From positions 1-64,000 of the forward strand of contig CAVZRV010000030.1 in NCBI GenBank assembly GCA_963777605.1: a stretch of 64,000 nt of DNA, read 5' to 3'. Below, piece after piece: positions 38,004 through 50,012 of the stretch (position 1 is its first letter; every line of letters starts with the position of its first letter). Under the pieces are notes generated by a model. That model did not search any database, had not been told where the DNA came from, and saw nothing but the letters and a program-made list of their open reading frames with translations. Origin of the DNA: an uncultured Acidobacteriota bacterium. Its GTDB lineage: Bacteria; Acidobacteriota; UBA6911; RPQK01; JAPXNP01. A program made the position numbers and the translations under genes.

Positions 38004-38927
38004 TCAGTCCCGAGTCAAGATGGCGCCAATCTCGGTGCGCAGTTCCTCAGCAATGCCTTCCGCTGCACCGGCACGGACAATCCAGCTCAGTCCGACGTCA
38101 CCGCAAGACGGTGCAGGGCCCAGGTGGATCTCGATGTCCGCCGGCCCGAGGTCCATGCTCCGAACGATACCGTCCACCTCACAGCATCCCTTCATCCGCA
38201 GGATGTCGAAGCGTCTCCGGACCACGAATCTCTCGATTCGATTCAAGTCTACGCCTCTCCCTGCCCGAACGATGATGGTTTCGAATGCCTGGTTTGGACC
38301 GGAGCCGGGTGTTTCCGCAAGCCGACTGAGGCGGGATTCGGGGAAAAGGGGCCCGTCGGCGTCAGAAAAAGTGCACCGCCGGATTGTTGCCGTCGGCGTC
38401 AACTGAGCGATCCGTTCTGAAGCTCGGGCAAGCAGGGCTTCGGGATAAAGGTCACATTTGTTGAGCAAGACCCGGTCGGCGCATTCGACCTGTTTCTGGA
38501 TGCAGGGGACGGAGTCGACCATTTTCAGGAAGGGGGCGGGGTCCACTATTGTGGTCACCGAAACGAGAGGGAATCTGGAACGAAAACCACTTTCCGCGAG
38601 CACCCGGTCAGCCGAGCCAGGATCTGCGATACCGCTCGCCTCGATCAGTATTCCGTCGAAGCCAGGCTCTCCACCCGCTTCGCTGTCCAGATCCTTCAGA
38701 ACCCCGAGAAGCTCGGTAATTCTACACCGGCAGAAGATGCTTCCTCCACTGATCGAGCGAGCCCGGGCACCGAGGGAGAGCAGTCGATGACCGTCCACAT
38801 CCTGGGGAGAAAAGTCGTTCACGAGGTACAGAAACCGTTCCGTCCGGTGTTCGTTCCAGTGTCGTTCGAGCAGGGTAGTCTTGCCGCTGCCGAGAAACCC
38901 GGTGACAAGCGCGAGCGGTGTCTTCAT
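38004..38927 (-). CDS. CobW/COG0523 G3E P-loop GTPase metallochaperone
   Basis: TGFLGSGKTT, ND, GGSIFCRC, EASGIADP and NKCD motifs. Confidence 0.9.
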   Translation of the reverse strand: MKTPLALVTGFLGSGKTTLLERHWNEHRTERFLYLVNDFSPQDVDGHRLLSLGARARSISGGSIFCRCRITELLGVLKDLDSEAGGEPGFDGILIEASGIADPGSADRVLAESGFRSRFPLVSVTTIVDPAPFLKMVDSVPCIQKQVECADRVLLNKCDLYPEALLARASERIAQLTPTATIRRCTFSDADGPLFPESRLSRLAETPGSGPNQAFETIIVRAGRGVDLNRIERFVVRRRFDILRMKGCCEVDGIVRSMDLGPADIEIHLGPAPSCGDVGLSWIVRAGAAEGIAEELRTEIGAILTRD

Positions 38928-40306
38928 TGCTGCTTGAGCTTCCATGCATTTTCGATCGTCGCAGCCAGTGTGGCCTGATCCGGGATGATCGAGGCAAAGG
39001 CTACGGCGCCGTCGATACAGATACTCGGGATCTGTCCCACTTCGAGGCGAGCCATGGCCGAGAGACCCTCGCGGGTCATGATTCGATGTTCTTTGGCGAT
39101 CACTGGGACCTTGACCTGTTTTGCCGCCCGTTGGACGGCTTCCATCATGTACTGGCAGGGAGCACACGAGGCCGAGTCCAATGTGATGACATCGATTTGT
39201 ACATGCGGCAGTCCCGTGTAGCAGTCCGGCAGGTCGGGCTTCACTTCCGACCCGCTCTTGGCGACGATTGTCCGCTTGGCCACTTCCCGGCTGTAGCCAT
39301 CTCGCACCATCTCTGAGACCGCCTGCAGGTTTGTCTCCGGAGTCGCATAGGGGAGGTCGCAGCCGGGTGATAGAACGAAACCGCATCCTCCCCCGATGTC
39401 CACACAGCGGATGGCGTCGAGTCGGGAGTCGTCGTCGTCTCCGAGGAGTAGCGTGGAGGTCAGCTTCAGATTGCCGCCGAATGACTTGTTGCTGGTCCGC
39501 GTAATGTCCCGGACCTTGGCTAGGGGTATATTTTCGTCGATCGAAATGTTGTCACAGCCAGTTTCGTTCATCACTTCCAGATTGCGTGTTGCATCACCGC
39601 ATACAAACAGGGACGAGAGTCCTTTGCGCCGGCGGATCTCTCCGAAGATCTGGTCGAGCGGACCGGCGACGAAGTCGGCGAAGTGGCGGGGGGATATTTG
39701 GCTTGTCATGGGATCAACGACGGCAACCACGTCGGCGCCGTTTTCGAGATATGCCGTCGCGACCCGGCTCCCGACCGCAGCACAGAAAGCGATCACGGCT
39801 TTGACGTAATCGGGATGATCGAACATGGAGAGGAAAATTCCGTTGCCCATCAGGTGGAGGGCCAGGGTGAAAGGGCCACAGATCAGTCCGTAAAGCCCGA
39901 CCTCCGCCCCGAACTCCCGCTTCAGCACGCCCAGTGTCTCGAATACGACGGGGAACCGTCCCTGGGACGGATCGAAAGACGGCAGGTCCGAGAGGGATCG
40001 TCCCGCCTCGAGAGGATGGTCCGCTACGCTCGGCGGTGAGTCTTCGGGCCAGTTGAGGCAACACCCCAGAACCTCGGCTTCGAGCTGCAGATCAAAACAG
40101 ACCGGCAGTGCGTCAGGACGGTAGAGTTCTGCCGCCTTGATCAGCCCGCCTGCCATCAGGCTCGATGAACGGAGATATCGGGGCGCCCTCTCACCGATCA
40201 GTTTGCCGCCATGAACACCTACAAAAGGTACCCAGGCGGGGCGCCAGGTCACCTCGTTTCGAATCGCACGCAGCAGGAGTCCACGACCGGTTTCATCGCT
40301 ATCCAC
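38924..40306 (-). CDS. URO-D/MtaA-like methyltransferase with a C-terminal thioredoxin-like CxxC domain
   Basis: FDLQLEAE.LG, GPFTLA, VCG, GGN and SPGCD motifs; C-terminal SCAPC...PSI.IDG; RBS GGGAGG. Confidence 0.85.
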   Translation of the reverse strand: MDSDETGRGLLLRAIRNEVTWRPAWVPFVGVHGGKLIGERAPRYLRSSSLMAGGLIKAAELYRPDALPVCFDLQLEAEVLGCCLNWPEDSPPSVADHPLEAGRSLSDLPSFDPSQGRFPVVFETLGVLKREFGAEVGLYGLICGPFTLALHLMGNGIFLSMFDHPDYVKAVIAFCAAVGSRVATAYLENGADVVAVVDPMTSQISPRHFADFVAGPLDQIFGEIRRRKGLSSLFVCGDATRNLEVMNETGCDNISIDENIPLAKVRDITRTSNKSFGGNLKLTSTLLLGDDDDSRLDAIRCVDIGGGCGFVLSPGCDLPYATPETNLQAVSEMVRDGYSREVAKRTIVAKSGSEVKPDLPDCYTGLPHVQIDVITLDSASCAPCQYMMEAVQRAAKQVKVPVIAKEHRIMTREGLSAMARLEVGQIPSICIDGAVAFASIIPDQATLAATIENAWKLKQQ

Positions 40307-40421
40307 TTTTGTTCCCTCCCGAGAATACCATCGGGAATTAGCGATTAGGAGAGGTGTCGGGTTTCTGACCTCTGCTCGACCCCACCACCCACTGCGAGCG
40401 GGGTCCAGGTTGAAGGCCGAT

Positions 40422-42704
40422 TCAGGGCTCCGTTTCCCAAAAGGGATAGTGCTCGGTTGGAACTGGTGGCCAGCGCAGGTGCTCCGAGAACTGAATGATC
40501 CGTTGAACGTCTTCTTCCAGGAGGAACCCGTCGTCCCGCAGTGACCTGGCCGACTCCGTGACTTGCTCGAGGTAGGTCTGGCGGGTCGGGTAGCGCTCCT
40601 CAATCGAAAGCCGGGCGTCCCCCTTTTGCAGGCGCATCTCCCGGGTCGGTGCAAATGGCCAGAAGGAGGACTCGAACGGGGTGAGATAGTTCTCGGCTCC
40701 GGTCCCCGTCTTCCGGGGGTTGAAGCCCTGGTAGGTTCCCAGTGGAGCCTGCAGGGCGGGAACCCGAATGCCACCGATCCCGTTGCCATCCTGGTCAAAG
40801 GCGGGAACGCGGGTCTCGTAAGGGGGCCCGAACGGGACGGGAGGGACCCGGTCCTGGATTCCCTCGGACCAGAAGCGCGGACCGTAATCGAGACGTGCAG
40901 GCTTCAGGTTTCGGCCCGGATGCCGGACTGCCGGGAAGACGACGCCACCGAGTTCGTAGCGGGGAATGTGCGGAAAGCGCACCTGGTGTTCCTTGGGGGT
41001 GATCAACTCTCCGTGGTCGATACGGGGAACCCGGCTGGGCGGCGGAAGAATTCCCTCGGAGACCCAGCGATCGAGCGCGACAAGCAGGGCCCGGCCAACC
41101 GGGCGCTGGTCCACCTGCCCCACTGAATGCTCTGCATCGGAGGACGTCCGGGACGCACCCTTTCCCGGGCTGCCATGGCGTGCGCCGTTGACCATGTAGA
41201 CGCGCACGTTTGAGTTGAGGTCCAGGTCGGACGTTCCCTGGAGGTTGATGTGAAGCAGGGAGGCGGAGCGAGTCCAGTACTCCAGGGCATGGTTGGCCAC
41301 CAGGATTTTGGGGACCTTGCCGAGGCGCTTGGCTTCCCGAAGGACGTCGCCATACTGGCGCCCTTCTTGCCCCAGGGGATCAAACTGCTCGACTCCGTCC
41401 TCGGCGTACAGGAACGGCATGAAATCAGCCGGGTAGTCGTTCCCTTCGAGGTGTTTCTGGTGGTGGGTCGTCTGTGCCCAGCGGTAGTTGAAGCCGCCTT
41501 TGCCCCCTCCTGGAACGTGCGGTCTCGCCCCGTCGAATGTCATGCGATCCCGCTCGTCAACGTGAAATCCCTGGTAGATCATGTGCGTGATTACCCGGCC
41601 GGACTGTGAAATTCCAAAGATGTAGGCGTACTCGGGATCGATCTCTCCCCCGGGCGCCAGCGGATTGGGTGTCCCCGCAGAATCCTGGCGGTCGAACCGG
41701 AAGAATGAAATGGCGTCACGAATCGCCGTGAGGCCCAGGCCGACGAGGCGGGGGTAGGCCGCGGTGTAGACGACTTCGTAGAGCTTGCCGCGGCGGAAGC
41801 CCTCCGGCAGGTAGACATGCACCGGGCTGAAGATCGGCTTGCCCGAGGCGTCGAGTTTGGCGAACTGCCAGCGGTCATGCGGAATGACCTCACGGGGAGC
41901 CGGTTCCGCGGAGTCGGGATCATCGCGGACCGTCAGGACCGCTTTTGACGCGAATCCCTCGGCAAGCGGGTAACAGCGACTTCCTCCCCAGGCCAGCCGC
42001 TCGACCCGCGTTTGGTCGTCACCCTGCACGGCCAGTTCGGCATTGACGAGTCCCGTCATCGGATTGCCGTCGGGTTGAACGACGACCGGCAGGTTGATCC
42101 GAAGCGGCTTCTCGCCCACCCGCTCGACGTCCCAGTTCCATCCCGACCAGAGCAGGGAATAGCCTTGGCGCATGAGCCAGCCGTTCCCCATGTCCTCCAG
42201 GGTTCTGGGATCGGTGGTTGACTCCGCGTCGTTGAGGAAACCCAGCATCAAGGGAAGGCCCCGGTTGTTGACGTCGTAGAGCAGCCGGTGATTTCCCTTC
42301 GACAGTTCGACCGGCTTGAGCAACAGGAAGTCCCCCTCGAACTCGACTTCTCCCTCGTCGTTGCGAGCGTCCTCGCCGATCACTTCCACTATTTCGTCCC
42401 CTTCAATGCGCGAGAGATCCTGTCTCAGCTGACCCTTTGATGCCAGTTTCAGGTCAACGACCGCCGCGTTGTGAGGGTTTGCGGGAGCGACCGCGTAGAC
42501 GAGTCGGCCCCGAATGCGCTCGTAGGGGCCAACCCCGCCGAAAGAGTACCCATCCGCGACCAGCGAACGTTCCGAGATCATCAGTCGGACGACGCGGGCC
42601 AGGCACGTCTGGGCGCCGGCGGTGAGGACGGCGGTCAGGATCAAGGCACACGAAAACGGGAGCGAACGGGAGTAGTTTCTTTGCATGACACCTCGTGCCG
42701 ACAT
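40422..42704 (-). CDS. Secreted alpha/beta-hydrolase domain protein (Abhydrolase_10-like)
   Basis: Signal peptide; GISQSGR nucleophile elbow, EYW, DGN..GGIR.P and SIEERY motifs. Confidence 0.85.
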   Translation of the reverse strand: MSARGVMQRNYSRSLPFSCALILTAVLTAGAQTCLARVVRLMISERSLVADGYSFGGVGPYERIRGRLVYAVAPANPHNAAVVDLKLASKGQLRQDLSRIEGDEIVEVIGEDARNDEGEVEFEGDFLLLKPVELSKGNHRLLYDVNNRGLPLMLGFLNDAESTTDPRTLEDMGNGWLMRQGYSLLWSGWNWDVERVGEKPLRINLPVVVQPDGNPMTGLVNAELAVQGDDQTRVERLAWGGSRCYPLAEGFASKAVLTVRDDPDSAEPAPREVIPHDRWQFAKLDASGKPIFSPVHVYLPEGFRRGKLYEVVYTAAYPRLVGLGLTAIRDAISFFRFDRQDSAGTPNPLAPGGEIDPEYAYIFGISQSGRVITHMIYQGFHVDERDRMTFDGARPHVPGGGKGGFNYRWAQTTHHQKHLEGNDYPADFMPFLYAEDGVEQFDPLGQEGRQYGDVLREAKRLGKVPKILVANHALEYWTRSASLLHINLQGTSDLDLNSNVRVYMVNGARHGSPGKGASRTSSDAEHSVGQVDQRPVGRALLVALDRWVSEGILPPPSRVPRIDHGELITPKEHQVRFPHIPRYELGGVVFPAVRHPGRNLKPARLDYGPRFWSEGIQDRVPPVPFGPPYETRVPAFDQDGNGIGGIRVPALQAPLGTYQGFNPRKTGTGAENYLTPFESSFWPFAPTREMRLQKGDARLSIEERYPTRQTYLEQVTESARSLRDDGFLLEEDVQRIIQFSEHLRWPPVPTEHYPFWETEP

Positions 42705-42802: not shown

Positions 42803-43678
42803 ATGAACCACTCCGAAACGTGGATCGAAGCCGATGACGGTACCCGTCTCTTCTGTCAGCGATGGGTTCCCGAACCGGTGACCGGCGCAAGGATCGGCCT
42901 CGTCCACGGGTTCGGCGACCACTCTGGAAGGTACGAGGAACTGGTTGTTTCGCTGACATCCGCCGGACACGGGCTATTTGCGTTCGACCTGAGAGGGCAC
43001 GGAAGGTCTTCCGGTCGCCGCGGACACATTCTCGCGTGGCAGCAGTATCGAGACGACCTGTCGCGTTTTCTCGACGAACTTAACAAGCAGGGTTCCGGGC
43101 CGTCATTTCTCCTCGGTCACAGCATGGGAGGCCTCATTATTCTGGAATTCCTTCTTGGCGAAGAGGCCGCTGATTCGACCGCCCGCGAAACGCACCGGGA
43201 CTCGATCGAAGGGGCGATCCTCTCGGCCCCGCTTCTCGAACAGCCCCGGCTTCCGGCCTGGCGTCTGCAGATCGCTGCCTGGCTGTCCAGGCTCTGGCCG
43301 GGTTTTTCCCTCAGAGCGGGAATCGATCCTGCCACGCTGTCTCGCAGCGAGAACGAGCAGGACGGGTACCGGCACGATCCGCTGGTTCACGGGACCGGCT
43401 CGGCGCGCCTGGCGACTGAGTTGCTTTCAGCTCAGTCGCGGGTTTTCAACTCGGCCAACCGCTTGAGAACTCCGGTCCTGCTGTGTCACGGCACGGCAGA
43501 TCGACTCGTTCCAATCTCGGGGAGTCGGCGGTTGGCCTCCGCAGCACCGCCCGCTGTCGTTGCGTTGAAGGAGTATTCGGGAGCCTGTCACGAACTGCAC
43601 AACGACCTGGTGAAGGAAGAGTATTTCGGAGACGTTCTCCACTGGATTGAGGAAACAGCTCAACGCAAGGGAGTTTGA
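42803..43678 (+). CDS. Lysophospholipase / monoacylglycerol lipase
   Basis: HGFGDHSGRY, DLRGHGRS, GHSMGG and HELHN motifs. Confidence 0.92.
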   Translation: MNHSETWIEADDGTRLFCQRWVPEPVTGARIGLVHGFGDHSGRYEELVVSLTSAGHGLFAFDLRGHGRSSGRRGHILAWQQYRDDLSRFLDELNKQGSGPSFLLGHSMGGLIILEFLLGEEAADSTARETHRDSIEGAILSAPLLEQPRLPAWRLQIAAWLSRLWPGFSLRAGIDPATLSRSENEQDGYRHDPLVHGTGSARLATELLSAQSRVFNSANRLRTPVLLCHGTADRLVPISGSRRLASAAPPAVVALKEYSGACHELHNDLVKEEYFGDVLHWIEETAQRKGV

Positions 43679-43679
43679 G

Positions 43680-46254
43680 ATGAGAGAGTGGGTCATACGA
43701 GTCCTGTCCTTATGTCTGACCATCGGAGTGTTGGCGTGCTCGAACTGTTCGACCGGTGAACAACCTCTCACAATCGGTATCTCACCCGTGGCAGACCCCC
43801 TGGAAGTATTGGCAGCCAAGGAACTCCGGCGCTACTGGTACCTGACGACCGGGAAACTGGGTGACATCCGGACGGTTGACGAACCGTCGGCGACAACCTC
43901 GAATCAGGTTATCCTTTGCACCATCGGAACCCCGTTCTCGCTTTCTGTCGAGCGAGTCCTGTCCCCGCCGGCGACCGACATCCAGGATGACCAGGGATAC
44001 CAGGTAATCAGCATCGGAGACCGGGGCAGCGGCGGAGTCCTGGTCCGGGGCGCCAGTCACCTCGGGACACTCTACGGTGCCTATCGCTTGATCGAGGCTC
44101 TCGGGGTTCGCTTCTATCCGGATGGCGACGCAATTCCGGAGATCCGAAAGGACCTCCGGCTTCCGCTGTTGAACCTGGTGGAGGCTCCCGCATTCCGGCT
44201 GCGGGGGATTCAGCCTTTTCACGATTTTCCGGAGGGGCCTGACTGGTGGAACCTGGACGACTACAAAGCGACCATCGCTCAGCTTGCGAAGATGCGGCTG
44301 AACTTCATCGGTTTTCACACCTATCCCTCCAAACCTTTCGACGGGGCATCGAAGCCGGAACCGATGGTGTGGATCGGCCTCGAAGACCAGGTTGCCGATG
44401 GGGGTCAGGTCCGTTCCGCGTATCCGGTGATGCACTTTCACACCGGGGACCGGACCTGGGGTTACGACACGATGGAGACATCGGCCTTCCACCTGGGGGG
44501 ATCGCAGCTTTTCGATCGGGACGACTACGGAGCCGGCTACATGGCCGGGATTTCGCCGTGGCCGCATCGACAGGAGGAGAATGTACGGATTTTCGACGAG
44601 TTCGGGAAACTCCAGCGAAGCGCGTTCGGCTTTGCCCGGAAGCTCGGAGTCCGAACCTGCGTCGGAACCGAAACTCCACTGACCATCCCGGAACCAGTGC
44701 AGGCCGAACTGCTCAGGCGGGGGATGGCCCCCGACTCGGAGGATGCCGTTCGCGCTGTCTACCGGGGGATCTTCACCCGCATCATGAAGACCCATCCACT
44801 GGACTACTACTGGTTTTGGACTCCCGAGTCGTGGACCTGGGATGAGATTCCCGATCGGGAAGTGGATCAGACCCGCAAGGATTTACTCGTCGCCTACGAG
44901 GTTGCCCGGGAGCTTGGAGTCCCCTTCGAGCTGGCCACGTCGGGATGGGTCCTGGGTCCTCCGGGGAACCGGGCGCAGTTCGACCAGGAACTGCCCAAGG
45001 AGATCGCCTTCAGCTGCATCAACCGCGAGGTCGGTTTCACCCCGGTGGAAGAGGGGTTCAGGCGGGTAGAGGGCCGTTCAAAGTGGGCGATACCGTGGCT
45101 GGAAGACGACCCTGCGCTCACCTCGCCGCAATTGTGGGTTGGGAGGGTCCGGCGTGATGCCCGGGATGCTCAGCGCTACGGTTGCGACGGCCTCTTCGGG
45201 ATCCACTGGCGCACGCGTCCTCTCGGCCCGGCGTTCGGTGCCCTCGCCCAGGCCGGATGGTCGGTACGTGATTGGGCCGAATCTCCTGACGGTCGTGACC
45301 TGGCCTCCGACGATTTTTACCTGGATTGGGCGGTCGCCCAGTTTGGGCCGGATGCGGGTCCGGAGGCGGCACGGATCTTCACCGAAGTGGACGGGGGGCC
45401 GCTCTATCACAGCGGCCAGGGTCCCCGGCAGGCCAATCTCTTCCGGGCTTCCGACTGGGCGGGTAAGGGGCCGGGCGGCGTCTTGGTCAACGAGGAACCC
45501 TGGAGTGAAGTGGCGCCCCGGTTCTCGTTTGTGGAGGAACTGGCGGCGTTGGAACCCAGGGTCACCGGAGCGGCCGCAAGGGAGCGGTTTGAATACTGGT
45601 TGAACCTGTTTCGTCTATTCCCGGCAGATGGCCGAGGTCGGCTGTACCCTGGGCGAACTGAAGGCGGCTGTGGGTGCCGCACAGAGGGAGAGAAGCCGGG
45701 TACAGGCACGGATCAGGACTGAGCAGGAGATTCTGCCACTGCGGGAGCGGGCAGCCCGGGAATGGAGCGAGATGGGGACCCTCCTGCTGAAGTACGTCAG
45801 CACGACCGGCGGAATGGGGACGATCGCCAACCTGGAACAGCACAACCTCGCCAACCTGAAACGATTGACGGAGTACGACGACGCCCTCGAGAAGCTCCTG
45901 GGAAAACCGGTTCCAGGACTTGAACTCGCAAGGGACTACCAGGGGCCGGACCGGCTCTTTCTCCCGACCAGGCGGGGAACCCTCGAAAGAGGTGAGGATT
46001 TGCGACTGGAGGCGATCGTCCTGAGCCGGATTCCCCCGAGCGAGGTTGTGCTCCACTGGAGGATGCTCGGCGACGGTGAGTTCTCGGAAGAGACCTTTAT
46101 GAGCGGAGAACGGGGCGTTTATCGGATAATACTGGAGTCAGCCCGGATCGGTGACTCGGACATTGAGTATTTTGTAGAGGCCAGAATGGACGGTTCCGCC
46201 CTTGTTGCCCCTCCGTCCGCTCCGGTGACGGGCCAGACCGTAGTGGTCTGGTGA
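43680..46254 (+). CDS. Secreted glycoside-hydrolase-like protein (GH20/67/89-like N-domain and barrel; frameshift near 45618)
   Basis: Signal/lipobox; AAKELRRY, GTLYGAY..IE..G.RF, P.F.LRG, KMRLN and IPWLEDD. Confidence 0.6.
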
Positions 46255-48639: not shown

Positions 48640-48671
48640 TTCATCCCGCTAGTCGAATTCGTAGAGGAAGA

Positions 48672-50012
48672 ATGATGACGAGAATTGCTATGTGGAACGT
48701 GTTCTTGGGCCTCCTGCTGCTGCTCACTGCAGCCGGGTGCTCTTCGCAGAGCGGGCCGACAGCCAAGGCCGAGGCCCAGGAATTTCGCCAGGCCATGCAA
48801 TCGTATCAGCAGAGCAAGGACCCTGCAGAGAAACTCCGCTTGGCCACCGACTTCCTGGACAAGTACCCCGACAGTCCATATACGGTCCAAGTGGTCGATG
48901 CGGTAACCCGTGACTACTATGGTACCGCCGTGACTGACCCAAAAGGGGCGGTCGCGTTTGCCCAGTCCAGGCTGGCCGGGTTGTCCGATCAGCGCCAAAT
49001 TGAGGCGGGACGCCTGGTTCTCCTGCGGTTGTACGGAAAGGCGGGCATGGGAGAGTCAATCGCGGCTCTGGCGGACAAACTGGGTTCGAAGGCGAGCCTC
49101 TCCGACCGGACGGCGATCGTTGATGGAGCGGTGGCAGCCGGTGACTGGGGCCTGGTGGAAAGAGAGGCTCAAGTCACCCTCGATCTCCTTTCCCCCGATT
49201 ATCTCAAGAACAGGTCGGGAGGCGAGGAACTGAACGAAGCCCAGATTGATTTCGAACTCCGGATGCAGAAGGCCGACCTTTATCGGTATCTCGGAGAGGC
49301 CCGTTTTCGCCAGGGTGCCGTCGGTGACGCTCTCAAGGATTTCGAGTCGGCTAACCAGGACGAGATTCGTAATTTCGTGGGTCTTGGCTTTACTTCGCTG
49401 GACGAAATGTGGGGAGAGGCCTTGATCGCTTCGGGAGAGAACCAGAAGGCGATGGACGTGCTGGAGCGTCCCGCCCTGATCGGACGCAACGAGGAGGCAC
49501 TCGGGCTGTTTAGAAAGGCGTATCTTGCGACCGGGCATCCCGAAAAGGAGTTCGATCGATTTTGTGCCGACCGGCGAGTCCAGGTGGCGCCGGAGATGCC
49601 AGGCTTTCAGGCTCTGGATTACAGCGGAAAGGAATTCACCTACGAGCCGGGCAACGGAAAGGTCACCTTCCTGGCCTTCTGGTTCCCGACATGAGGGGGA
49701 TGCCGCGTGGAGTTGCCACGCCTCCAGTCGCTTTACGAGAAGTTTCGGGATCGTGGTGTCGAGTTTATCGCCGTGGAAGCGGTGCGCGACACTGAAGGAG
49801 CAGAAGAGTTCATCGAGAAGAACGGCCTGAGTTATCGCTTCCTGGAGAACGGAGAAGGAAAGAGGGAGATCGTGCGCTCATTGTTCCATGTCCGGGTGTT
49901 CCCGACGTCGCTGTTGATTGACCAGAAGGGCCGGGTGGTCAGCTGCCATATCGACTACAGTGAGGGCGACGACGCCCGCTTTGAATCTGAGATCCTAAAC
50001 CTCCTGAGTTGA
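48672..50012 (+). CDS. TPR-like/TlpA-type redoxin lipoprotein; probable selenoprotein (UGA at 49692-49694 read as Sec, motif UGGC)
   Basis: Lipobox AAGC; ...[21 protein letters not shown]...FPTSLLID continues in frame; hairpin just 3' of the UGA. Confidence 0.85.
49705..49721 (+). other. Putative bacterial SECIS hairpin GCGTGG-AGTTG-CCACGC
   Basis: Perfect 6-bp stem starting 11 nt after the UGA, with a G-containing loop. Confidence 0.7.

Follow-up and report, generated by a model that had tools for sequence, protein, structure and literature searches.

An in-frame UGA at the active site of a TPR-redoxin lipoprotein gene predicts an exported UxxC selenoprotein in an uncultured Acidobacteriota bacterium

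Results

A redoxin reading frame with an internal TGA

The gene studied here lies at positions 48672..50012 of a 64,000-nt stretch of DNA from an uncultured Acidobacteriota bacterium (the window), is flanked by tex and typA and, like all of the features of it described below, is on the (+) strand. The frame that begins at ATG 48672 is open until a TGA at 49692-49694, located immediately behind the sequence FWFPT, and beyond this codon the same frame runs via VFPT and ILNLLS to a second TGA at 50010-50012, giving 446 residues with the internal TGA at residue 341. The initial annotation had placed the internal TGA at the first Cys of a TlpA/redoxin motif and had the frame continue past it to 50012; both points are borne out, the context FWFPT-U-GGC being that of a TlpA/ResA-type CxxC. 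With selenocysteine (Sec, U341) at the TGA, the motif becomes UxxC i.e. U341-G-G-C344, in which U341 would be the attacking residue and Cys344 (49701..49703), which is invariant in the family alignment A1, the resolving cysteine. Translation may start at the second ATG (48675), to which the ribosome-binding-like AGAGGA at 48663-48668 is a better match than to ATG 48672 and at which the database protein P0002 begins. A scan for promoters and terminators at the gene gave nothing above shuffled sequences. Three short contigs overlap the TGA region, one of them ∼99% identical but ending 2 nt past the codon, and the only match in a search of the genome contigs for related loci was an unrelated peroxiredoxin-like locus.

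Two other arrangements were seen in the window. The overlapping ORFs 43647-45722 and 45628-46254 (43647-46254, +), which are in different frames and have a weak GH67N match, look like a single gene for a glycoside-hydrolase-like lipoprotein that is interrupted by a frameshift near 45620. At 38004-40798 (-), a URO-D-like protein with a C-terminal thioredoxin_3-like CAPC domain adjoins a CobW GTPase.

Selenocysteine machinery and genetic code of the host

All four of the genes that the initial annotation had proposed to look for are present in the host genome (6.7 Mb, 96.7% complete, 5.7% contamination): selA on contig C10 (E 1.3e-128), selB on contig C29 and selD on contig C7 (both over cut-off), and a tRNA-Sec gene, selC (70.5 bits, UCA anticodon). 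The selD gene itself has one in-frame TGA, at its catalytic position. Among relatives, selA was found in 39/40, and 33 of the 36 genomes that carry the gene gave a selB match; two TGA carriers with no selB match, G126 and G182, have both selA and tRNA-Sec. In the Cys-only genome G266, selA, selB and tRNA-Sec all gave no match. A general reassignment of TGA was considered and rejected because TGA terminates ordinary genes in the host genome, including this gene, tex, selA and dsbD; the genetic code is therefore unchanged.

The TGA codon is conserved among relatives

Of the 15 genomes of the same family, 6 carry orthologues of full or nearly full length (33-45% identity), all of which have a single TGA at this codon, and the full-length form was present in 7 of the 76 genomes of the order. 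Across the phylum sample 31/401 genomes matched at E at most 1e-28, and one in-frame TGA was present at 34 of the 37 listed places. The three exceptions were a full-length Cys homologue (L092), a Cys TPR-redoxin in G266 and a fragment starting past the site (L096). The last of these (G082:C213) is a C-terminal half that begins inside the SECIS stem and is joined to an unrelated transposase-like frame sharing a short similar word; we treated it as a fragment, the result of either rearrangement or mis-assembly.

For metagenomes we used a pattern that left this codon and all synonymous positions free, the motif itself being derived from a Sec-type sequence. Among the matches listed, which number at least 120, the codon was TGA in 120/120 (109 distinct), and, with one exception, the 74 complete cases had a downstream frame that stayed open for 99-112 codons.

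The protein databases give the complementary picture. Two database proteins cover the gene in pieces (P0002 and its relatives for the N-terminal part, and P0052), and a search of the 50%-identity library with the family profile gave, among the best 150 matches, 102 whose last residue lies no more than two residues from the position preceding the codon, as expected if gene callers split the gene. The other best-150 matches were 13 full-length proteins (12 with CxxC, one without) and 35 other redoxins or fragments. Homologues ending here as separate proteins had been named as a possible objection to a selenoprotein; they do end here, yet the DNA continues in frame, and their database versions end at the codon because gene callers stop at TGA. 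The closest Atlas clusters consist of truncated proteins without a name and are found most often in Acidobacteriota and Krumholzibacteriota. The codon aligns with the catalytic Cys of homologues (FWFPTCGPC, FWAHPCGSC), so that the anticipated Cys/UGA pairing is seen: TGA is kept at one codon, the frame behind it is open and full-length Cys homologues exist.

A quick tree intermixes the Cys and Sec forms, with 8 Sec/Cys changes of which at least 4 are forced by starred branches. This tree came with long-branch warnings and no proper root test, and counted the motif-less protein P0033 as Cys; it suggests, i.e. is compatible with but does not prove, repeated Sec-to-Cys reversion. P0033 is a full-length relative in which the CxxC is replaced (FWDPSQGVA) and is probably a catalytically dead TPR-redoxin lipoprotein; the scaffold may therefore sometimes work without redox chemistry.

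A SECIS hairpin tied to the TGA codon

The perfect hairpin that the initial annotation had described as starting 11 nt past the UGA lies at 49705..49721 (GCGTGG/AGTTG/CCACGC, +11 to +27 after the UGA). Its stem has 6 bp, and its 5-nt loop, AGUUG, begins 16 nt past the UGA. The hairpin overlaps codons R345-R350; the loop G belongs to the codon for Glu347, the conserved Glu at CxxC+3. The hairpin is the minimum-energy fold of 49700-49730 (31 nt; -10.1 kcal/mol, z = -1.53), while three longer pieces around it gave z of about 0 to +0.5 i.e. a stability no greater than that of shuffles. According to Figure 2 of PMC13188914, the bSECIS consensus comprises a loop of 3-9 nt, a stem of 4-16 bp, a G in the first two loop positions, a spacing of 16-37 nt and an MFE of at most -7.5 kcal/mol. 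Compared with that figure, the hairpin agrees with every one of these published features (loop 5, stem 6, loop AGUUG, spacing 16, -10.1 kcal/mol).

We determined how often such structures occur by counting them at all 210,247 TGA triplets of the genome. Of these, 5511 (2.6%) are followed by perfectly paired stems of 6 bp or more that fit the bSECIS geometry; the exact 16-nt spacing together with a 5-nt loop is seen at 56. By its z-score and by this background frequency the hairpin taken alone is only modestly unusual, and is suggestive rather than conclusive. An Rfam search at E up to 1 did not match a SECIS family, the only matches being three sub-threshold eukaryotic ones, and when Fdh-alpha was sought as a second SECIS control no gene scored over the cut-off.

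The significance of the hairpin comes instead from its conservation, its covariation and a control with Cys codons. Within the protein family a stem of at least 5 bp (G-U counted) was present at the exact register in 46/47 distinct TGA sites, whereas a 4-bp stem was present in 0/21 Cys-codon sites, and the loop was AGTTN in 47/47 TGA sites despite at least six different stem sequences. This comparison left out three matches that did not match the motif pattern, namely L075 (TGA with a 6-bp stem), L050 (Cys with stem 1) and L022 (peroxiredoxin-like). The full-length Cys homologue L092 has no stem. Identical six codons were used at 15 of the 16 genomic sites encoding RVELPR, for which the expectation from the codon use of this genome is ∼1e-4, although the sites are related. 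Among the metagenome matches listed, 108/109 distinct TGA sites had a stem of at least 6 bp, and the codons were identical (CGC GTG GAG TTG CCA) in 92/109 even though the pattern permitted synonyms. In 15 aligned TGA sites 98.9% of cells pair and 3/6 pairs have changed on both sides, with slid controls giving 20-67%. The covariation is largely one split, which separates the TPR family from a family of short paralogues, and therefore does not represent 22 independent events.

These results bear directly on the possibility that the TGA is a true stop, leaving two separate proteins, a TPR lipoprotein of 340 aa and a fragment of 101 aa that begins at GTG 49707, or that the locus is a pseudogene or contains a sequencing error. 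Such a reading would fit with the storage of both pieces as separate database proteins. However, more than 100 independent sequences would then have a stop in the active site of their thioredoxin fold, in each case TGA and in no case TAA or TAG. The half behind the codon is conserved, full-length Cys homologues exist and the hairpin goes with TGA, while reassignment of TGA is excluded by the genes that end in it. We therefore consider a true stop, pseudogene or error extremely unlikely. The codon conservation and the association of the hairpin with TGA indicate instead that the UGA at 49692-49694 is almost certainly decoded as selenocysteine, which would make the gene a selenoprotein gene.

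Domain organisation and predicted fold

The N-terminus (48672..48740) is predicted to be a lipoprotein signal peptide with a lipobox-like TAAG-C ending at Cys23 (48738-48740). It fits a PROSITE-like lipoprotein rule that comprises a charged n-region, a hydrophobic h-region and the lipobox Cys. The Cys23 column contains Cys in 69% of 90 aligned rows. The same rule also fits 47 of the 89 N-complete relatives, and many of the others look like plain signal peptides; for this reason export appears to be general in the family and lipidation variable. The TPR-redoxin is thus predicted to be extracytoplasmic, which on these sequence features is very probable.

An AF2 model (pLDDT 85.7, pTM 0.80) consists of a solenoid of ∼14 helices (29-305) followed by a thioredoxin-like domain. 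The all-helical solenoid, residues about 29-305 (48756..49586), is TPR-like: its best Foldseek matches are consensus TPR proteins (E 3.9e-5 to 1.1e-4, with a TM of only about 0.36), and Pfam TPR_14 scores 19.8 bits, under its cut-off of 23.5. The solenoid conserves small or hydrophobic packing residues and contains no conserved Cys or evident catalytic residue.

Residues 306-446 (49587..50009) form a TlpA/ResA/CcmG-like redoxin domain that scores over the cut-off for PF00578 (52.4/26 bits), PF08534 (50.8/26.6 bits) and also PF13905. The model of this domain was compared by VIA with 3gl3 (Z 19.8, rmsd 2.2, 140 aligned) and with ResA 2f9s (Z 19.6, rmsd 2.1, 137 aligned), and its fold matches comprise DsbE, ResA, SdbA, CcmG, TlpA and Etrx2. 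The cis-proline is a general feature of the thioredoxin fold, and here it is predicted to be Pro411 in VFPT (49902..49904), which is invariant in A1.

The closest folds, ResA/DsbE/CcmG, raise the possibility that the selenoprotein is the apocytochrome-c reductase of this lineage, in the role of CcmG or ResA. Glu347 at CxxC+3, which we take to be the position of ResA Glu80, would fit with this, and the E80Q structure of ResA is among the fold matches. In addition, an adjoining CxxC redoxin ORF of at least 100 aa was not found at the ccmE-ccmF-ccmA-ccmB-ccmC-like cluster of the host, so that with no adjacent ccmG there is room for a cytochrome-c role. However, ccm genes were recognisable at 0/18 orthologue loci (judged by eye, with a domain scan of some ORFs), full-length orthologues are present in only 7/76 genomes of the order, the ResA and DsbE models score far under their cut-offs (72.7/170 and 17.5/123), and the host has at least seven other TlpA-like proteins available. 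A dedicated role in cytochrome-c maturation is therefore very unlikely.

Gene neighbourhood

A conserved operon was considered and rejected, as the neighbours differ among genera: a class II aldolase gene is adjacent in four genomes of the same family, Fur/catalase genes are adjacent in one genus, and other genes elsewhere. Because the neighbourhood is not conserved beyond close genera, it links the gene genetically to neither DsbD nor a client.

The Fur/catalase neighbours come from three genomes of a single genus (f27), in which the gene is divergent from catalase or from Fur and catalase-peroxidase genes. A main function in oxidative-stress defence would fit with this arrangement, with the selenoprotein serving either as a donor to periplasmic peroxidases or methionine-sulfoxide reductases, or as a direct reductase of sulfenic acids or peroxides, comparable to pneumococcal Etrx or SdbA. 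The fold matches include Etrx2 and SdbA, and a short UxxC paralogue in the host comes after an MsrP-like ORF. However, the catalase association is limited to this one genus and so counts as one event, and the motif is UxxC rather than the TxxU of peroxiredoxins. We consider this function unlikely, and it overlaps with the explanation that we prefer, from which it differs solely in the client.

Related genes in the host and in other genomes

The short paralogue of the host (G000:C7:756228-756833, +) encodes a lipoprotein with FFFPT-U-GTC, its TGA being at 756510, and has a 5-bp version of the same hairpin. It directly follows ORF 755252-756265, which we presume to be MsrP-like. At G000:C13:189617 (+), a BCP/peroxiredoxin-like frame with an in-frame TGA (AFTGG-U-TLEC) is a probable further selenoprotein. 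The host also has a Cys TPR-TlpA lipoprotein (G000:C11:282216-283721), the redoxin domain of which is matched identically on C11 and C4 (duplication or assembly redundancy), and a lipoprotein (G000:C31:438347-440326, -) that begins with related N-terminal helices and has another kind of CxxC domain (ECNPC) at its C-terminus.

In other genomes, L076:385-2757 (G119:C107) is a 791-aa variant extended at the N-terminus by ∼350 residues of beta-rich appearance, for which Pfam gave no match; its Sec motif (FWTPSS-U-TSC) is displaced, and it retains the hairpin. A second lipoprotein sub-family (L078-L091 and L097) has a shorter TPR region, ∼330 aa and the motif FW[ST]PT-U-xAC-REEFPH, with a hairpin of different stem sequence in the same register and the loop AGTTY. 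One genome, G088, has four Sec TPR-redoxin paralogues (L093, G088:C145:500-16000; L094, G088:C49), of which two are in tandem and two lie within a 13-kb cluster that also contains two Cys TPR-redoxins and CARDB/Kelch proteins.

Discussion

The explanation that we prefer is that the locus is one gene, decoded through its UGA, for a predicted lipid-anchored periplasmic fusion of a TPR-like helical scaffold and a UxxC redoxin that is likely to reduce disulfides (or oxidised thiols) in exported proteins; we regard this as probable. In this scheme SelB-GTP-Sec-tRNA(Sec) would bind the loop G of the hairpin ∼18 nt after the UGA, leading to insertion of Sec341, and the protein would then be exported and acylated at Cys23. 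In CxxC redoxins the first position attacks and the second Cys resolves. By analogy the Sec341 selenolate would attack a substrate disulfide and Cys344 would resolve the mixed bond, leaving a selenenylsulfide. The usual electron source of exported ResA/TlpA-type proteins is DsbD/CcdA, and the host genome encodes, on contig C29, a DsbD with N-terminal, membrane and thioredoxin domains. This three-domain DsbD could re-reduce the TPR-redoxin with cytoplasmic electrons, and a DsbD-fed reductase is the likely role, although the seven or more other TlpA-like proteins of the host would be able to share this DsbD. The TPR-like domain is most simply seen as a client-binding scaffold, and the solenoid would select or hold the client proteins.

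A broader proposal can be put forward more tentatively. In it, the TPR-redoxins would be an unnamed, Sec-first exported family of at least 102 clusters (50% identity), almost all of them stored in truncated form, with Sec as the ancestral state and the Cys forms as repeated reversions. The family would constitute a selenium-dependent periplasmic protein-repair branch, with the TPR solenoid picking a specific client class and DsbD supplying the electrons, and one short SECIS form (6-bp stem, AGUUN loop in the conserved Glu codon) would be shared with several other UxxC redoxin sub-families of the phylum. Taken as a whole this proposal is possible but doubtful.

The analysis corrects a systematic annotation error, in which more than 100 protein clusters are stored as 'hypothetical/TPR' and end one residue before the active site, and it adds an exported two-domain architecture to the catalogue of bacterial UxxC selenoproteins. 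It also supports the view that thiol chemistry in the cell envelope can be based on selenium, a subject on which few experiments exist, and the Sec/Cys pairs with and without a hairpin form a clean natural set for deriving SECIS rules. The finding alters no principle.

Comparison with known systems

That UxxC thioredoxin-fold selenoproteins are already known, as the initial annotation stated, is correct, since UxxC redoxins are a catalogued class. Members with PF00578, PF08534 and cd02966 domains, all computationally predicted, appear in Table 1 of PMC13188914 and Table 1 of PMC9312934. The catalogued Redoxin-family and Prx-like thiol:disulfide oxidoreductase UxxC selenoproteins share their Pfam domains, the UxxC motif and the bSECIS geometry with the TPR-redoxin, which adds an N-terminal export/lipoprotein signal and a TPR-like solenoid of ∼280 aa. 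As judged from sequence and domain content, the TPR-redoxins appear to be a large uncatalogued sub-family within this known class, with a TPR-fused exported architecture that seems to be new.

The term TPR is absent from the review PMC13188914, and our literature searches, which had most subscription journals outside their coverage, returned no description of a TPR-fused exported UxxC form; one aimed at periplasmic, DsbD-linked selenoproteins returned a single unrelated paper. PMC2398784 counts 225 Prx-like 1 UxxC genes and describes fusions, and the FWFPT-U motif was not found among its GOS supplementary sequences. The same paper shows a UxxC protein in which, as judged by eye, a helical tail accompanies a lipobox; there is thus a precedent for UxxC proteins that are both exported and fused. 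At least 212 rows of the BSepDB supplement are from Acidobacteriota (PMC13326102), and entries there or the catalogued representatives may already include TPR-redoxin members.

Two NCBIfam models, NF041054 (WAxxUGC_long) and NF053656 (redoxin_TUGYCR), likewise describe ResA-like or thioredoxin-fold Sec proteins, and their motifs differ from that of the TPR-redoxin. Against NF041054 the TPR-redoxin scores 34.4 bits (cut-off 300) and does not match the WAxxUGC motif; against NF053656 it has no match at E 0.01, and its relatives reach at most 24.1 of 100. No NCBIfam model scores over its cut-off, those for ResA (NF002854), DsbE-CcmG (TIGR00385) and TlpA (NF047696) giving 72.7/170, 17.5/123.15 and 30.6/230.

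B. subtilis ResA, CcmG/DsbE, B. japonicum TlpA, S. gordonii SdbA and pneumococcal Etrx2 have the same fold as the redoxin model (Z 15.6-19.8, rmsd 2.1-2.5), and have in common with the TPR-redoxin, as predicted, a membrane-tethered extracytoplasmic location, the Glu at CxxC+3 and the cis-Pro loop. Unlike these proteins, the TPR-redoxin has Sec for the attacking Cys, a GG dipeptide between the redox residues and a large helical N-terminal domain, and its gene has no linkage to cytochrome-maturation genes. The Cys TPR-TlpA fusion lipoproteins (P0007, P0011, P0015, L092 and host C11:282216) have the same architecture with a Cys codon and, where the DNA was examined (L092), no hairpin. Among the best 150 matches these Cys fusions are the minority of the close family, with 12 clusters compared with 102.
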